Source of the DNA: Chloroflexota bacterium
GTDB taxonomy: Bacteria > Chloroflexota > Dehalococcoidia > GIF9 > AB-539-J10
Reading direction: 5' to 3'
Length of the DNA: 64,000 nucleotides
Assembly (NCBI GenBank): GCA_013388845.1
Contig: JACAEN010000016.1
Location: forward strand, 21,898-85,897
Positions 9,420-61,210 of the stretch are shown in pieces (the first letter of the stretch is position 1; each line of letters starts with the position of its first letter). Position numbers and translations under genes: made by a program. The notes under the pieces were generated by a model. The model had not been told where the DNA came from. It did no database searches and saw nothing but the letters and a program-made list of their open reading frames with translations.

Positions 9420-9550
9420 ATCGTCTTTACCTTAACTCCCCCTAGAAATTCTAAGAATCTTCAGGGAACCATTAATCCTCTCCCGTCAAGGCAGATAAGC
9501 TACTGAGACCGAAGCCTTGCATTACAATGTCAATAACCATCTCCTTTACC

Positions 9551-9642
9551 GAGATTGCCACGCCCCGACCCCGATTCATCGGGGGCTCGCAATGACACTC
9601 TCTCGTTTGTCATTGCGAGGAGTGAAGCGACGAAGCAATCTC
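9551..9642. repeat. Inverted doublet of REP-like type I elements (9551-9596 and 9609-9642)
   Basis: gagattgccacg...ctcgcaatgac, a 12-nt spacer, then gtcattgcgagg...gaagcaatctc. The left copy contains ccccgattcatcgggg. The right copy supplies the ATPase stop codon. Confidence 0.88.
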
Positions 9643-21683: not shown

Positions 21684-21873
21684 TTTAAGAACGCTGAGAT
21701 GGCAACAAGAGATGGTTTATTGTTTAACGAGAATTGTATCAATTAATCCAAGCTATATTTTGTACAATTTGTTAAGAAAAGTCTAGGTGAAGGAAGTCCT
21801 ACATCCGGGCTGATCTAGTTCAGATCGATGGGTGACACTTTATATGTTTGTAACGTTGGGTAATAACCTCTCT

Positions 21874-21974
21874 GTCATTGCGAGCCCCGACTTGTCGGGG
21901 CGTGGCAATCTCTATCCCCCTCAGCCAACAAGATTGCTTTATCGCCCCGATTCATCGGGGCTCCTCGCAATGAC
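21874..21974. repeat. Inverted doublet of REP-like type I elements
   Basis: gtcattgcgag-ccccgacttgtcgggg-cgtggcaatctc ... agattgctttatcg-ccccgattcatcgggg-ctcctcgcaatgac. Confidence 0.88.
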
Positions 21975-22013
21975 AAAAAAAGTGTCACTATCCATATGCA
22001 CGAGTACAAGGGC

Positions 22014-26002: not shown

Positions 26003-26019
26003 TCCCGATGGAGTCGGGA
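26003..26019. repeat. CCCGA-N-TCGGG short hairpin, intergenic
   Basis: tcccgat-gga-gtcggga. Confidence 0.55.
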
Positions 26020-32075: not shown

Positions 32076-32229
32076 ACAGTATGGTACCAGACTATAAATT
32101 CACTGCGACAACAGAGCGAGATGAAGATGGGCTTGGAGGCAGAGACCTAGGAAAACTCATCTTGAGAAAAATCCTAAAAAATGTCAAAATCAATGCTGGC
32201 GACATAAGCAATCGTGCGAAGGTATTCAT

Positions 32230-32304
32230 TCCCCGGTAGCTCAATGGTAGAGTGGGCGGCTGTTAACCGCTTGGTTGCAGGTTCGAGTCCTGCCCGGGGA
32301 GCCA
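32230..32304 (+). tRNA. tRNA-Asn(GTT)
   Basis: TCCCCGG acceptor, loop CT-GTT-AA, CCA. Confidence 0.96.
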
Positions 32305-32326
32305 GGTTCAGACTTGTGACTTGCCA

Positions 32327-32584
32327 ATGGATAAAACTTTGTACTTCGTCTATGTCCTGCGAAATCCTCAAGGTCGATTGTACGTGGGCTTTACCACCGA
32401 CTTAGAGAGGCGTGTCCGTCAACATCAGGAAGGCGAGGGTGGCTGGACTCATAGCCGTGGTCCATGGGAGTTAGTTCACTTTGAGGGCTTCACCACGCGG
32501 GCAGAGGCTCTGCGGCGAGAGCGTAATTCGAAGCGTGGTAAAACAAACCAAGAACTTCGGGAGCGTTTTAGCGGAGTTAGGTAG
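32327..32584 (+). CDS. Stand-alone GIY-YIG nuclease (85 aa), linked to tRNA-Asn
   Basis: VYVL...LYVGFTTDLERRVRQH...EALRRE. Stop codon lies in the D-loop of the downstream tRNA copy. Confidence 0.9.
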   Translation: MDKTLYFVYVLRNPQGRLYVGFTTDLERRVRQHQEGEGGWTHSRGPWELVHFEGFTTRAEALRRERNSKRGKTNQELRERFSGVR

Positions 32585-32658
32585 AGTGGGTCCTTCTGTA
32601 GAAGGATTAACCGCTTGGTTGCAGGTTCTCCTTCCAAAGAAAGGACTGCCCGAGGAGC
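32569..32658 (+). pseudogene. Degenerate tRNA-Asn copy with two hairpin substitutions
   Basis: ggtagagtggg-[tccttctgtagaagga]-ttaaccgcttggttgcaggttc-[tccttccaaagaaagga]-ctgcccgaggagc aligns to tRNA-Asn 32230-32304. Confidence 0.88.
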
Positions 32659-32807
32659 TTGGAATTCACCCAAGGCTTTCATAATCACTCCTCGGGAAAA
32701 TTGTCCTCATTCGTCTCCTGTTTGCTTGACAGTGTGGGGGGTGATATAGTACAAGTTATGATTTGAGTGAGACTCAAGAAATTAGCGCCAGAAAGGGAGC
32801 GAGCAAA

Positions 32808-35643: not shown

Positions 35644-35739
35644 CTCTAGATCCTTTTTGCTTAGTATAGCAATTCTGCCATAAATTCAACAGCATAAAGC
35701 TTTTGCTAGCACACAGTATTTGATACAATAATTAACGTT

Positions 35740-35812
35740 GGGGCTGTAGCTTAGCTGGGAGAGCGCCTGCTTTGCAAGCAGGAGGTCAGGGGTTCGAATC
35801 CCCTCAGCTCCA
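35740..35812 (+). tRNA. tRNA-Ala(TGC), CCA not encoded
   Basis: GGGGCTG/CAGCTCC acceptor with G3:U70, loop TT-TGC-AA. Confidence 0.97.
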
Positions 35813-35823
35813 TTCACGTCGAT

Positions 35824-36072
35824 ATGTTTTATGCATATATTCTTCAAAGTGAGACAGGTAATCGATATTACATTGGTTCTACAAAGGATCTATCTCGTAG
35901 AGTAATTGAGCATAATCGAGGAAAAAGCAACTCAACAAAGCCTTATCGTCCCTGGAAGCTGGTGTATTGCGAGTGTTTTCAAACTCTGGCCGAAGCCAGA
36001 CAAAGAGAACAAGAGATTAAATCGTGGAAAAGTCACGAATATCTGAGAAAAACGCTTGGATTGAACGCTTAA
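35824..36072 (+). CDS. Stand-alone GIY-YIG nuclease, copy 1 (82 aa)
   Basis: FYAYILQS...YYIGSTKDLSRRVIEHN...PWKLVY.E.F....EARQREQEIK. Confidence 0.92.
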   Translation: MFYAYILQSETGNRYYIGSTKDLSRRVIEHNRGKSNSTKPYRPWKLVYCECFQTLAEARQREQEIKSWKSHEYLRKTLGLNA

Positions 36073-36131
36073 TCAGGCAGAGCGTCCCGATTGCATCGGG
36101 GAGGTCAGGGGTTCGAATCCCCTCAGCTCCA
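36057..36131 (+). pseudogene. Degenerate tRNA-Ala copy 1 with rewritten anticodon stem
   Basis: D-arm gctt-aatcaggca-gagc, arm tcccg-attgcat-cgggg, T-arm and 3' acceptor identical to tRNA-Ala. Confidence 0.85.
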
Positions 36132-36142
36132 TTCACGTCGAT

Positions 36143-36375
36143 ATGTTTTATACATATATCCTTCAAAGTGAGACAAGTAATCGATATTACATTGGTTCTA
36201 CAAAGGATCCATCCCGTAGAGTAATTGAGCATAATCGAGGAAAAAGCAACTCAACAAAGCCTTATCGTCCCTGGAAGCTGGTGTATTGCGAGTGTTTTCA
36301 AACTCTGGCCGAAGCCAGACAAAGGGAGCAAGAGATTAAATCGTGGAAAAGTCACGAATATCTGAGAAAAACGCT

Positions 36376-36391
<16 letters not shown>
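36143..36391 (+). CDS. Stand-alone GIY-YIG nuclease, copy 2 (82 aa)
   Basis: Near-identical to copy 1 (A4T, G12S, L23P). Confidence 0.92.
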
Positions 36392-36453
<62 letters not shown>

Positions 36454-41087: not shown

Positions 41088-42014
41088 GTGATCGCCATCG
41101 TTGGTCCCACCGCTGTAGGGAAAAGTGAGCTTGCTCTGCACCTAGCTCAATACTTTCCTATAGAGATAATAAGCGCCGATAGCCGTCAGGTCTATCGGCA
41201 TATGGATATCGGCACTAATAAGCCCACTTTGGCTGAGAGGGCAGCGGTCACTCACCATGTCATTGACGTAGTCGAGCCTGATGAAAATTTCAGCCTGGCT
41301 ATGTATCATCGACTAGCCATTGAGGCGCTGGATGCCATTCATCAGAAGGGCAAGTTGCCACTACTGGTCGGTGGCAGCGGACTTTACGTATGGTCGTTGG
41401 TGGAGGGATGGGAAATACCTCGCGTGCCACCCAATCAGCAGCTAAGACGCCGGTTAGAAGTCAGAGCAAAGCAAGAAGGTAGCCATACTCTCTATCAGGA
41501 ATTGCAGGATATTGACCCTGTGGCGGCAGAAAAAATCAATCCCAGCAATATCCGACGCATAATCAGGGCACTGGAAATCTACCAGGCGACCGGGCAGCCT
41601 CCTTCTCAATTACAGCGTAAACGGGCACCATGTTTCTCTGTTTTGATCATCGGTTTAACCCTGGAAAGAAGCGAACTATATAGAAAGATTGATTGGCGTG
41701 TTGATAGAATGATACAGAGGGGATTGGTTGAGGAAGTAGAACAGCTATTGAAAAAAGGTTATAGCCCTTCCCTGCCTTCTATGTCGGGGATAGGTTACAA
41801 GGAAATAGGACAGTTTCTGCGAGGCGAGATGACTTTGCCCGAGTCTATTGATAAAATAAAATATGAAACCCATCGACTGGCTCGTCATCAGTATGCCTGG
41901 TTTCGCCTCAACGATAGCCGGATTCATTGGTTTGATACCGGCGAGGCGGAAGCCAAAGGTACGATTGTCGCACTAAACAAGGTGAAGGGTCTCATAGAAG
42001 GTTTCCTATCATGA
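41088..42014 (+). CDS. miaA: tRNA dimethylallyltransferase
   Basis: GPTAVGKS, ISADSRQVY, VGGSGLY, IGYKE. Confidence 0.96.
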   Translation: MIAIVGPTAVGKSELALHLAQYFPIEIISADSRQVYRHMDIGTNKPTLAERAAVTHHVIDVVEPDENFSLAMYHRLAIEALDAIHQKGKLPLLVGGSGLYVWSLVEGWEIPRVPPNQQLRRRLEVRAKQEGSHTLYQELQDIDPVAAEKINPSNIRRIIRALEIYQATGQPPSQLQRKRAPCFSVLIIGLTLERSELYRKIDWRVDRMIQRGLVEEVEQLLKKGYSPSLPSMSGIGYKEIGQFLRGEMTLPESIDKIKYETHRLARHQYAWFRLNDSRIHWFDTGEAEAKGTIVALNKVKGLIEGFLS

Positions 42015-42901
42015 AATTCTCCAAGTTACAAGGCACAGGCAATGATTTCATCTTGGTTGACGCCAGAACCACGGAAAGGGAATGGTCAAAGCTGGCTCGA
42101 GTTACGTGTGACCGTCACTTTGGAGTAGGAGCCGACGGCTTGATACTAGTGCAGGACTCGACCATCGCTGATTTAAAGATGCGTATTTTTAATTCCGATG
42201 GTTCTGAGGCTGAGGTTTCCGGCAATGGGCTGAGATGTTTTGCTAAGTATGCTATTGAGAAGGGCTTGGCTGGCAAAATATCATCGCCAGCAGAGTCCCG
42301 ATTGCATCGGGACAATCGCTCTCTGACCGTAGAAACTTTGTCAGGCGTAAGAAAGGTTAAAGCTTATATGTCAGGAGATAAGGTCAACCGAGTCGAGGTA
42401 GGTATGGGTCTGCCTCAGTTTCAGCCGCAGCAAATCCCTGTTAAAGTTGACATCCCGATTGCATCGGGACCAATATTAGATTATCGTTTAATAATAGACG
42501 GAAAAGAGTTGACCTTATCTATTCTATCCATGGGTAATCCCCACGCCGTGAGCTTCTCATCGCAACCGGTTGCTGATTTTCCTTTAACTGAAATAGGACC
42601 AAAAGTGGAGAGGCACCCTGTGTTCCCCAAAAAGACCAATTTTGAGATAGCCAGAGTCTTGAACAGGGGAAAGATAGAAGCCAGGGTGTGGGAGCGAGGT
42701 GTTGGAGAAACTCTGGCCTGTGGAAGCGGCGCTTGCGCCATAGCTGTGGCTGCTCAGTTATTAGACCACGTGGATGAACAAGTTGACATAATACTCGAAG
42801 GTGGGACTCTGACCGTATCCTGGGATAGGGTAGGGGAGGTGTTGCTTACCGGTCCCGTGGAGGAAGTTTTCACTGGCGAATGGCCTGGAGGAAAGAGCTG
42901 A
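42011..42901 (+). CDS. dapF: Diaminopimelate epimerase
   Basis: GTGNDF, DRHFGVGADG, NSDGSEAEVSGNG, MGNPH, ERGVGETLACGSG. Confidence 0.94.
   Translation: MKFSKLQGTGNDFILVDARTTEREWSKLARVTCDRHFGVGADGLILVQDSTIADLKMRIFNSDGSEAEVSGNGLRCFAKYAIEKGLAGKISSPAESRLHRDNRSLTVETLSGVRKVKAYMSGDKVNRVEVGMGLPQFQPQQIPVKVDIPIASGPILDYRLIIDGKELTLSILSMGNPHAVSFSSQPVADFPLTEIGPKVERHPVFPKKTNFEIARVLNRGKIEARVWERGVGETLACGSGACAIAVAAQLLDHVDEQVDIILEGGTLTVSWDRVGEVLLTGPVEEVFTGEWPGGKS
42295..42313. repeat. CCCGATTGCATCGGG hairpin in frame in dapF (SRLHRD)
   Basis: gtcccgattgcatcgggac. The 15-nt core is identical to the pseudo-tRNA-Ala anticodon arm. Confidence 0.8.
42452..42470. repeat. Second CCCGATTGCATCGGG hairpin in dapF (IPIASG)
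   Basis: atcccgattgcatcgggac, read in a different frame from the first copy. Confidence 0.8.
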
Positions 42902-51870: not shown

Positions 51871-52278
51871 CGGGCAAGCAAACCTGTAAGCCGAGTTCTG
51901 TCCCCCGACCGAGTCGGGGTGGTGACCATCCATCTAGCCCCGATGTTACCATCGAGGTCAAGCGACCAACCCGAGGGCTTCGGCCGAGCGCCTTAGACTC
52001 ACCCCAGAGTCTTGAGACTTTGGAGCAGTTGAGCCCTCTTATTCGGTCTTGCTCCGGGTGGGGTTTGCCCAGCCAGCCAGTTTCCTGGTTGCTGGTGAGC
52101 TCTTGCCTCACCATTTCACCCTTACCCGCACCCCGATGCCATCAGGGCCGCTGGCGGTATGTTTCTGTGGCACTTTCCGTAGGGTCTCCCCTCCTGGGTA
52201 TTACCCAGCACCCTGCTCGGTAGAGCTCGGACTTTCCTCCCCGATTGTATCGGGGCGGTCACCCGGTTTACTTGCCCG
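51871..52278 (-). ncRNA. rnpB: RNase P RNA (type A)
   Basis: GAGGAAAGTCCGAGCTC, GAAAGTGCCACAGAAA, ACAGAACTCGGCTTAC. P1 cgggcaagtaaacc/ggtttgcttgcccg. Confidence 0.96.
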
Positions 52279-60131: not shown

Positions 60132-61210
60132 TCTCCCTTTGCCAAGTCCATTTTTGCAATCAATTTCTGCACAGCTTCCCTAACATCTTCCCCGCCCAGA
60201 ACAGCGCTAATTACAGCTACAGCATCAGCACCCGCAGACACCACTTCACCAATATTGCTCTGATTGATGCCACCAATAGCTACCACAGGGATTGATACAC
60301 TGCCTTTGAGCTCCTTAATCCTATCCACACCAACCACAGTAGCCTCCCTTTTTGTTGCCGTGGGAAATATAGAGCCCACAGCAACATAATCGGCTCCTTC
60401 TCTTTGAGCTTTCTTGCCTTGGGACAGCGTCGTGACCGAGCAGCCAACTATTTTATCTATGGGCAATTCCCTGCGGATTACCGGCAAGGGCAGATCCTCC
60501 TGTCCAACGTGAAGCCCATCAGCATCGACAGCCATAGCTAAGTCGAGGTAATCATTTATTATAAATAGAACGCCTGCTTGACTACAGAGAGCTTTGAGCT
60601 TTTGCGCTACAAGTAACAATTCCCCTTTTTTGTCCCGATAAAATCGGGACTTATCGCGAAGCTGAATTACCCCGGCACCTCCCTCAATAATTTGGCCAGC
60701 AATGACCAGCTCATCCCTGCCAGCTAAAAATTGCCTATCCAGAATAACGTAAAGCCCAGTCATCCTCTCCATTTTGTCCCGACGTGATATTCTGGAAACT
60801 AAATCTCGCTCCAAGGTATAAAGGGCAAACCTCATCTGCTGGAAGCTGGCTGAATTCAGTATTGAACTTATCTCTGGCAGTTTAGCTAGCTCTTCTATTA
60901 CACGAAGGGACTCTTCCACTCTTTTAGCATTGGCTGTAACCAGGCCCGAGAGGTCCCGCGCAGACTGCTCCGCTTCTGACTCGTAGCTAGCGCCTGTACG
61001 AGCGCCGACATCACGTTCGGAATCTCTGTGAGATAAGAGCCCTATGTTCAACGATTTAGTCTCCCGGGCTAAATCATGGCGTAGAGTTTTTAACCGCTGG
61101 CTCAGTTCAGCATCGTTGAGCAGAAAGCGAGCGACATCTTCCAGAACTCGCAGGCCTTCACTGGAGCGGTTCAGATTGGCATCAATCACACGCAACAGTT
61201 GATGAGACAC
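60116..61210 (-). CDS. thiE: Thiamine-phosphate synthase with N-terminal extension (ThiD2-like)
   Basis: RVIDANLNRSSEGLRVLED N-domain, IQLRDK, INDY, HVGQEDL, GSIFPT, AIGGI. Confidence 0.9.
   Translation of the reverse strand: MSHQLLRVIDANLNRSSEGLRVLEDVARFLLNDAELSQRLKTLRHDLARETKSLNIGLLSHRDSERDVGARTGASYESEAEQSARDLSGLVTANAKRVEESLRVIEELAKLPEISSILNSASFQQMRFALYTLERDLVSRISRRDKMERMTGLYVILDRQFLAGRDELVIAGQIIEGGAGVIQLRDKSRFYRDKKGELLLVAQKLKALCSQAGVLFIINDYLDLAMAVDADGLHVGQEDLPLPVIRRELPIDKIVGCSVTTLSQGKKAQREGADYVAVGSIFPTATKREATVVGVDRIKELKGSVSIPVVAIGGINQSNIGEVVSAGADAVAVISAVLGGEDVREAVQKLIAKMDLAKGECQNL
60632..60650. repeat. CCCGA-N-TCGGG hairpin in frame in thiE (SRFYRD)
   Basis: gtcccgat-aaa-atcgggac. Confidence 0.75.

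Follow-up and report, generated by a model that had tools for sequence, protein, structure and literature searches.

How does a small nuclease gene come to lie between an intact transfer RNA (tRNA) gene and a disrupted second copy of the same tRNA? The question is raised by a 64,000-nucleotide (nt) stretch of DNA from a Chloroflexota bacterium (assembly GCA_013388845.1, contig JACAEN010000016.1, positions 21,898 to 85,897 of the forward strand), called the window below. Its own numbering is used throughout, and all counts cover this 64-kb window and loci fetched from relatives. An intact tRNA-Asn(GTT) gene (32230-32304) is followed by a 22-nt spacer (32305-32326), an open reading frame (ORF) for an 85-amino-acid (aa) GIY-YIG nuclease of an Asn-linked clade (32327-32584) and a pseudo-tRNA-Asn that is recognisable from the D-loop to the discriminator plus C (32580-32658), all on the plus strand. 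We show that this cassette is an insertion, that its layout, strictly co-oriented with the tRNA, is widespread and general across phyla, and that the class of its hairpins co-varies with the nuclease clade.

An insertion at the tRNA-Asn gene

Empty sites were sought on contigs with a gene closely related (82-86% identity) to the RNase H gene that lies before tRNA-Asn. Seven relatives (L162-L168) share the gene order of the window (Phe-Leu-Gln tRNAs, RNase H, tRNA-Asn, ACP, FabF, redoxin, DsbD) and have no nuclease gene at tRNA-Asn. Alignment showed that the native tRNA-Asn of these relatives ends in ...CCCGGGGAGC and runs straight into TTGGAATTCA (or TTGCAATTCA, TGAAATTTCA); the junction reads GGGGAGC/TTGG, and CCA is not encoded. 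In the window the intact tRNA-Asn continues into element sequence, CAGGTTCAG..., and the native flank (GAGC/TTGGAATTCA) resumes at 32659, behind the pseudo-copy. Positions 32303-32658 on the plus strand, 356 bp by alignment with L162-L167, are therefore inserted DNA.

The insertion comprises the final two bases of the intact tRNA-Asn (CA, 32303-32304), the spacer, which is element sequence kept in the occupied relatives L171-L173, the nuclease ORF and the hairpin-bearing pseudo-tRNA. Its boundaries can slide in register because tRNA sequence is duplicated. As a side effect of the insertion, the window tRNA-Asn gene encodes CCA. CCA status was considered as a marker of the native copy and rejected: six of the eight window tRNAs encode CCA, the marker is decisive only with empty sites, and no fixed rule holds across the clade of nucleases linked to tRNA-Ala.

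The tRNA-Asn locus is occupied in relatives L171-L173, and presence/absence polymorphism exists at this site: the flanks of L172 (occupied) and L165 (empty) are 100% and 97.3% identical, and the difference is a 344-bp block. In L171 the seemingly intact tRNA-Asn (1385-1470) joins a foreign-type 5′ half (TCCTCGA..) to the local 3′ half (..CCGGGGA), and the upstream genes differ; this hybrid arose either in metagenome assembly, as a chimera across a shared tRNA, or by true recombination at the cassette.

By comparison with the tRNA-Asn and tRNA-Ala empty sites, the ends of the inserts fall at the discriminator base. Insertion at the 3′ end of a tRNA gene, with the 3′ part of the tRNA left behind as a direct repeat, is typical of integrative elements, and the pseudo-copy might by this token be the attachment-site duplication of an integrase-driven island or prophage that carried the nuclease as a passenger. 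To this origin we give next to no credence. It is excluded by the size of the insert (344-356 bp, with the nuclease as the only gene); no integrase lies beside either window locus, no recombinase gene lies in the insert, and conserved hairpins break up the repeat, which often spans the whole tRNA.

An earlier note on this DNA, made from the sequence alone, had given the layout of tRNA-Asn, 22-nt gap and 85-aa GIY-YIG ORF, and this was exact by ARAGORN, Rfam (tRNA, 68.9 bits) and PF01541 (E 4.9e-17). The ORF starts with ATG at 32327. Its TAG stop (32582-32584) sits, as the note had it, in ggTAGagtggg, the D-loop/D-stem equivalent of the downstream copy, so that the 5′ part of the pseudo-tRNA encodes the C-terminal codons of the ORF and its stop. 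The spacer has no Shine-Dalgarno motif and is too short for a promoter of its own; a promoter and terminator scan gave nothing above shuffles. Between RNase H and tRNA-Asn lies a 52-aa ORF (32081-32239) with no Pfam match, the DNA of which is partly conserved in the empty-site relatives; it is probably the promoter/leader region of the tRNA rather than a gene.

Two arms of the pseudo-tRNA-Asn are disrupted, and otherwise it is a copy of the local tRNA. Alignment of the region 32569-32658 with 32230-32304 confirmed the two hairpins and the aligned flanks. The copy begins with tRNA sequence, GGTAGAGTGGG (32580-32590). Hairpin 1 (TCCTTC-TGTA-GAAGGA, TCCTTCTGTAGAAGGA, 32591-32606, plus strand) stands in place of cggctg, which in the tRNA makes up the 5′ strand of the anticodon stem and two bases of the loop. 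It is followed by 22 nt, TTAACCGCTTGGTTGCAGGTTC (32607-32628), identical to the tRNA. Hairpin 2 (TCCTT-CCAAAGA-AAGGA, TCCTTCCAAAGAAAGGA, 32629-32645, plus strand) takes the place of gagtc of the T-loop, and the last segment, CTGCCCGAGGAGC (32646-32658), differs by one base from CTGCCCGGGGAGC of the tRNA. Local alignment of tRNA-Asn with the downstream stretch scored 52, against 22 for the best of 20 shuffles, and such a copy accompanies only two of the eight window tRNAs, Asn and Ala. The pseudo-tRNA-Asn has no Rfam or ARAGORN match: its anticodon stem is destroyed, its 5′ acceptor strand is degenerate, and it does not form a complete cloverleaf.

Hairpin 1 occupies the same position throughout the Asn clade. 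Hairpin 2 is present in L173, L003, L004, L005, L006, L009 and L011 and absent from L171, L172, L001, L002 and L010; it is thus not a fixed part of the design, L171 and L172 being the closest relatives. Within the 64 kb TCCTT..AAGGA hairpins alone are not significant (2 against 0.81 expected, a number reached by 20 of 100 shuffles). Their significance comes from the recurrence of the same hairpin at the same two tRNA positions in relatives of the Asn-linked clade.

A layout shared across phyla, and hairpins that follow the nuclease

A second cassette lies 3.4 kb downstream and consists of two tandem units of an independent lineage, all on the plus strand. The intact tRNA-Ala(UGC) (35739-35813; ARAGORN, Rfam) is followed by element sequence, TTCACGTCGAT. 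Unit 1 (35814-36132, 319 bp) contains a 10-nt spacer, an 82-aa GIY-YIG ORF (35824-36072) and a pseudo-tRNA-Ala (36058-36131) in which TCCCGA-TTGCA-TCGGGG replaces the anticodon arm. Unit 2 (36133-36450) follows at a repeat spacing of 319 bp with its own ORF (36143-36391) and pseudo-tRNA (36377-36450), and then come the native CCA (36451-36453) and the native flank. The empty tRNA-Ala site of L170 ends in ...CAGCTCCA-CCA, with CCA encoded. One Ala unit, against two in the window, was found in L081, whose ORF has 94% aa identity and whose downstream flank is the same. The Asn-linked ORF is 41% identical to both 82-aa ORFs, and nuclease paralog, tRNA and hairpin family all differ between the two loci; the earlier note was right to treat them as divergent and independent.

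Relatives of the Asn-type nuclease were collected with a pattern scan of one genome per species. The scan was built on the Asn-clade alignment, the Asn and Ala paralogs together being not conserved enough, and it gave 250 confirmed relatives, the best 80 of which were examined. The phyla represented include Chloroflexota, Acidobacteriota, Bacteroidota, Verrucomicrobiota, Planctomycetota, Nitrospirota, Spirochaetota, Pseudomonadota and several phyla of the Candidate Phyla Radiation (CPR). A tRNA ends within 130 nt upstream of the ORF in 45 of them and starts within 130 nt downstream in 10; in all 55 the tRNA is on the ORF strand, and none of the 80 has a tRNA on the opposite strand within that distance. 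At least 10 tRNA identities are represented, and nearly all of the 55 have a second, modified copy of the same tRNA across the ORF, with scores far above shuffles. The layout is thus general and not a one-off duplication, as the note had argued.

Eighty metagenome loci with Ala-type relatives showed the same layout, and almost all close ones lie 8-11 nt behind tRNA-Ala (UGC, CGC or GGC). Among the loci scored (the 160 of both sets plus the two window cassettes) a pseudo-copy was detected in 94, and in 82 of these it reaches to within 3 nt of the tRNA 3′ end. The modified copy is the downstream one, less often the upstream one, and spacers between tRNA and ORF measure 2-22 nt.

The modified tRNA copy always carries at least one short perfect palindrome, which replaces a native arm or lies inside it. 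Of the inserted hairpins that gapped alignment detects, 22 lie in the anticodon arm, 17 in the T arm and 6 in the D arm, a count that misses the equal-length anticodon swaps of the Ala clade. There the exchange is precise, with GAGCG-[anticodon arm]-AGGTC turned into GAGCG-TCCCGA-loop-TCGGGA-AGGTC. The stems fall into classes with compensated differences (TCCTTC/GAAGGA, TCCGCC/GGCGGA, TCCCGA/TCGGGA, TCCCGC/GCGGGA, GTCGCC/GGCGAC and TCGGCC/GGCCGA). Their loops vary in sequence and in length (3 to 9 nt in one scan, longer elsewhere), and the hairpins lie 9-75 nt beyond the ORF end. The variable loops argue for recognition of a folded single strand rather than of a dimer site on duplex DNA. Among 39 distinct 7-bp stems, 36 are perfectly Watson-Crick paired and none contains a G.T pair; this lack of wobble pairs argues that the hairpin acts as DNA rather than as RNA. 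A bias between G.T and A.C mismatches was considered as an indicator of the folding strand and dropped, the three imperfect stems of the 39 being too few.

To relate hairpins and tRNAs to the nucleases, label changes were counted on a tree of 151 nuclease sequences and compared with shuffled labels. Nuclease phylogeny tracks both: tRNA identity required 32 changes (shuffles: minimum 63, mean 70.5) and hairpin class 13 (minimum 36, mean 41.3). Asn and TCCTTC are uniform in the Chloroflexota clade to which the window Asn protein belongs, and Ala and TCCCGA go with the 36-member clade (support 97) of the window Ala proteins. TCCGCC hairpins occur with Ile, Val, Met, Asn, Arg and Phe tRNA genes, and TCCCGA hairpins with Ala, Val, Ile, Pro, Asp, Lys and Leu tRNA genes. 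One hairpin class thus extends over several tRNA identities, and therefore nuclease and hairpin form the cognate pair, with a looser choice of tRNA. The earlier note had proposed that paralog, tRNA and hairpin are all matched to one another; the pairing of nuclease and hairpin stands, and the tie between hairpin and tRNA does not.

Could the pseudo-tRNA act as an RNA, either as a tRNA-like 3′ element for RNase P or RNase Z or as a partner that guides the nuclease to the tRNA gene it matches? Spacers of 2-22 nt leave no promoter room for the ORF, the insert ends at the discriminator base, where RNase Z cuts, and the RNA fold is stabler than shuffles (z = -3.1). The pseudo-tRNA-Ala at 36058-36131 scores 35.6 bits against an Rfam tRNA gathering score of 29 (the copy at 36377-36450 is not listed), and equivalent copies in relatives are called by ARAGORN as tRNA-Ala(UGC), in one case as tRNA-Thr and, in another clade, as tRNA-SeC. 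It is the exact swap of the anticodon arm that lets Rfam and ARAGORN accept some Ala copies as tRNAs. By Infernal alignment the copy is not a full tRNA: one base is missing on the 5′ side of the acceptor, and A3:U70 stands where the Ala identity pair G3:U70 should be. The idea that the Ala hairpin loop retains the anticodon (TTGCA resembling UGC) was rejected, since the loops vary freely in relatives (TTATA, TCACA, TGGAA and others). The stems are perfect palindromes without G.U pairs, the anticodon stem of the Asn copy is destroyed and not replaced, and the 5′ strand of its acceptor is degenerate. The end of tRNA homology would place the junctions at the discriminator just as well, and Ssn, a GIY-YIG nuclease considered below, does not bind RNA (PMC11893778). 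RNA processing could moreover coexist with a DNA mechanism. We regard an RNA-level explanation of the cassette as very unlikely.

The nuclease and a possible route of spread

The three window ORFs score 62.4, 62.7 and 64.4 bits with PF01541 (cut-off 22.6), and residues Y9, Y19, G21, R29, H33 and E65 are invariant in 20 diverse members. The catalytic domain covers the whole length of the 82-85-aa proteins; there is no DNA-binding module, no auxiliary domain and no UvrC-type C-terminal Asn. A search of the Protein Data Bank gave as nearest solved structures the UPF0213 proteins BH0048 (1zg2, E 9e-12) and EF2693 (1ywl, 9e-9), followed by Slx1 (2e-6) and UvrC (0.87). TIGR01453 scored 19-20 bits against a cut-off of 56, and the PHROGs and PADLOC libraries gave no meaningful match, a PHROG homing-endonuclease match being marginal. 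These comparisons place the family in a minimal stand-alone Slx1/UPF0213-like branch and not with UvrC or homing endonucleases. Ratios of non-synonymous to synonymous change (dN/dS) of 0.05-0.32 among the ORFs, and of 0.07 for the window Asn ORF against L001, a pair with saturated synonymous sites, indicate purifying selection and a functional protein. By analogy, the nuclease is probably Ssn-like and of the single-strand type.

The pseudo-copy, too, is maintained and is not a decaying relic. Among 14 distinct tRNA-Asn sequences the local tRNA is strictly the best match to the pseudo-copy in 13 of 14 Asn loci. Closely related Ala-type ORFs occur at tRNA-Ala(UGC) and tRNA-Ala(CGC), and each pseudo-copy has the local 3′ half. 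In L171 and L172, which are closer to the window than L173, the T arm of the pseudo-copy reads exactly as in the tRNA; hairpin 2 is found in the window and in L173. These facts, among them the local matching despite saturated synonymous sites, require ongoing exchange between the copies or re-creation of the copy at each insertion.

Copy number and content also vary. An array without ORFs in L064 (1162-1441) consists of 3.3 units of 84 nt, with the tRNA-Val 5′ half and a TCCCGA hairpin, directly upstream of the intact gene. In L038 (680-1024) 4.4 ORF-less units of 79 nt are followed by 3.1 ORF-bearing units of 365 nt. The ORF-less units of both loci contain the local tRNA 5′ half, the hairpin of the clade where the anticodon arm would be, and a further stretch of about 35 nt that is unrelated. 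Truncated ORFs occur among the loci.

Hairpins of the Ala type are also dispersed through the window. CCCGA-N3-8-TCGGG occurs 13 times against 0.26 expected, a number reached by none of 100 shuffles, and several copies lie far from any nuclease gene. Enrichment over background, which the earlier note had asked of the TCCTT/AAGGA hairpins, holds for the Ala type; a single window does not decide it for the TCCTT type.

Individual CCCGA-loop-TCGGG sites are found at 26003-26019, 52240-52254 and 60633-60650, and also at 9570, 21886, 21946, 29676 and 51904. The solo TCCCGA..TCGGGA(C) at 26003 is intergenic and that at 60633 lies inside a 364-aa minus-strand ORF; the copy at 52240, CCCCGA..TCGGGG, is intergenic. 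The dapF gene (42011-42901) contains two exact copies of TCCCGATTGCATCGGGAC (42296-42313 and 42453-42470) in different reading frames, with the same stem and loop as the hairpin of the Ala pseudo-tRNA. The first lies within a 9-residue insertion relative to solved DapF structures. The dapF hairpins look as if they had inserted in frame into the coding sequence, in a manner that recalls the palindromic elements of Rickettsia. A longer nested palindrome, GTCATTGCGAG..CCCCGA-loop-TCGGGG..CTCGCAATGAC, has three intergenic copies (9540-9640 and 21860-21990) and may be a separate REP- or MITE-like family with a common inner hairpin.

We favour, with moderate confidence, the reading that the cassette is selfish: an Ssn-type nuclease and its own hairpin would sit inside a tRNA duplication and spread by recombination between homologous tRNA sequences. 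The nuclease gene would probably be read from the tRNA transcript, given the 22-nt spacer with no promoter room. The copy of the host tRNA would serve as a scaffold for the hairpins, kept identical to the local tRNA outside the hairpin swaps. A busy tRNA gene may often expose single-stranded DNA (ssDNA), on the non-template strand during transcription and possibly on the lagging-strand template during replication, and the nuclease would then bind its own hairpin and nick beside it. A nick between two tRNA stretches could be repaired by homologous recombination or template switching with another copy of that tRNA, be it in the adjacent intact gene, on the sister chromosome, in another isoacceptor gene or, once DNA has been transferred, in the tRNA gene of the recipient. 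Single-strand specificity, cut position and recombination route are what we infer here.

Such a route would account for homogenisation with the local tRNA, for tandem arrays and copy-number changes, for gain and loss of hairpins and for their presence in the upstream or downstream copy. It would also account for jumps between tRNA genes and entry into empty ones, with the tRNA as a portable homology arm. Junctions would fall where donor-recipient homology ends, at the discriminator base, and the cost to the host would be low, one intact tRNA always being kept.

Several points weigh against this reading. The window hairpins do not fit the published SRM consensus of Ssn sites (C after GTC, not A or T). 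A self-cutting hydrolytic nuclease can neither join DNA nor by itself explain new sites, and the recombination step is a conjecture. Beyond hairpin 2 the homology extends for only 13 nt, less than ordinary RecA exchange needs. Nor was an intermediate found, whether excised, circular or single-stranded: at 80% likeness, Logan contigs from four samples, the source hot spring among them, gave no same-strain empty allele and no circular junction, in data that are noisy, many organisms sharing the tRNA. Passive unequal crossing-over of direct repeats could produce the arrays and shift hairpins between copies, and the pseudo-tRNA could have an RNA-level role, for example as a processing or stability signal for the mRNA.

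In place of hairpin recognition, a classical free-standing homing endonuclease could cut the intact double-stranded tRNA gene, with double-strand-break repair copying the cassette in and the hairpins blocking recutting and recombinational loss. GIY-YIG is a classic homing-endonuclease fold, and SegB of T4 sets a precedent in a tRNA cluster (PMC2330249). Gap repair would agree with the presence/absence polymorphism at a conserved site (L172 against L165, the window against L162-L168) and with occupied/empty pairs whose junctions lie where tRNA homology ends, and the hairpins do cut the identity blocks of the Asn pseudo-copy to 11, 22 and 13 nt. Seg and Tev enzymes, however, require a DNA-binding module, and the cassette proteins are bare catalytic domains of 82-85 aa whose best matches are Slx1 and UPF0213 rather than the homing-endonuclease lineage. 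The adjacent intact tRNA would stay a target, and the disrupting sequence, a conserved palindrome, changes in step with the nuclease clade and also occurs solo, which points to the enzyme's own site. Homing of this kind seems unlikely to us.

The strong purifying selection would also suit a host-serving, domesticated module that modulates recombination or transformation, or protects or processes the tRNA locus, with the duplication as a by-product and mainly vertical inheritance with occasional loss. The nuclease clades correspond for the most part to host phyla, L171-L173 carry the cassette at the same locus, and the Ssn/NTS pair of Neisseria modulates natural transformation (PMC11893778). 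Yet seven close syntenic relatives have no cassette, a near-identical contig pair differs by the insert only, copy number varies, and truncated ORFs and ORF-less arrays occur; closely related nucleases are found at different tRNA genes, and only two of the eight window tRNA genes are occupied. We consider domestication improbable, somewhat more so than homing.

The selfish reading can be taken further, to a class of minimal mobile elements of about 0.32-0.36 kb in which an 80-aa ssDNA-specific hydrolytic nuclease, a hairpin and a tRNA decoy replace transposase and ends. These would move by 'nick-and-copy' into any matching tRNA gene, and the hairpins would also spread solo, even in frame into protein-coding genes, dapF for example. 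We put this wider version forward tentatively, as a possibility that may well prove wrong.

If the selfish reading is true, it links Ssn-type single-strand nucleases to a concrete selfish life cycle and makes tRNA genes portable homology arms for an element without a recombinase, among the smallest that encode their own enzyme and distributed from Chloroflexota and Acidobacteriota to the ultra-small CPR bacteria. The nuclease-hairpin pairs would then be a natural library of orthogonal sequence-specific ssDNA cutters, with two non-cross-matching pairs in the window. The cassettes have practical consequences as well. Hairpin pseudo-tRNAs risk annotation as extra tRNA genes, as the ARAGORN and Rfam calls of Ala copies illustrate; the cassettes break metagenome assemblies, many homolog contigs being shorter than 1 kb, and they alter whether the host tRNA gene encodes the CCA end.

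Relation to known systems

In the literature searched, mostly outside subscription journals, we found no description of a tRNA-nested GIY-YIG cassette; SegB and Ssn were found. Apparently, then, the cassette is an undescribed and very widespread tRNA-nested variant of nuclease-plus-hairpin systems. Ssn nucleases are single-domain GIY-YIG proteins of about 94 aa. Their binding site is a hairpin repeat (NTS/SRM) next to the gene that encodes them, and they cleave ssDNA a few nt to the 5′ side of this hairpin; neither double-stranded DNA nor RNA is cut (Chenal et al., Nat Commun 2025, PMC11893778). The cassette shares with them a single-domain GIY-YIG protein of 80-95 aa, a gene flanked by a co-varying hairpin repeat and dispersed solo hairpin copies in the genome, and the TCCCGC..GCGGGA class of its relatives is the Neisseria NTS/dRS3 core. 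It differs in that the hairpin is built into a tRNA copy, where it replaces a native arm, and in that the gene is wedged between this copy and an intact tRNA; the Ssn paper never mentions tRNA (PMC11893778). By inspection GGGTCCTTC.. and GCGTCCCGA.. have C at the W of the SRM consensus (HGTCWYN(0-2)YYVSBRH...), the likeness to Ssn (cd10448) being drawn by description.

SegB of T4/T6 is a free-standing GIY-YIG enzyme encoded in a phage tRNA gene cluster, and it cuts a tRNA gene of related phages (PMC2330249; PMC13096335). As in the cassette, the GIY-YIG gene lies between tRNA genes without an intron, and DNA breaks promote its own inheritance and amplification of the tRNA region, steps that remain conjectural for the cassette. 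According to published descriptions SegB is larger and multi-domain and cuts double-stranded DNA of element-free phages (PMC2330249). It is, moreover, a phage gene with neither tRNA duplication nor hairpin, whereas the cassette is chromosomal. UPF0213/Slx1-like proteins (BH0048, 1zg2; EF2693, 1ywl) are, of the proteins with solved structures, the nearest in sequence and share the minimal domain and the lack of a UvrC-type C-terminal Asn, but they have no assigned site or genomic context. A 2006 survey regarded stand-alone Slx1-like proteins as minimal, vertically inherited repair factors and reported no tRNA linkage (Dunin-Horkawicz et al., PMC1564403).

Among mobile elements, IS200/IS605 and REP/RAYT systems resemble the cassette in having a small nuclease gene, cognate subterminal DNA hairpins and dispersed non-autonomous hairpin copies. 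Single-strand action is documented for IS200/IS605 and would, by our reading, hold for the cassette. The enzymes of these elements are HUH tyrosine enzymes that form covalent intermediates and rejoin DNA, whereas GIY-YIG enzymes only hydrolyse, so that movement of the cassette would need host recombination or repair; nor do those elements make a tRNA duplication. Integrase islands and prophages share with the cassette the tRNA target, the regenerated intact tRNA and a partial tRNA repeat at the far end. Unlike them, the cassette has no integrase and measures about 350 bp, and its repeat is interrupted by hairpins and can span the full tRNA.

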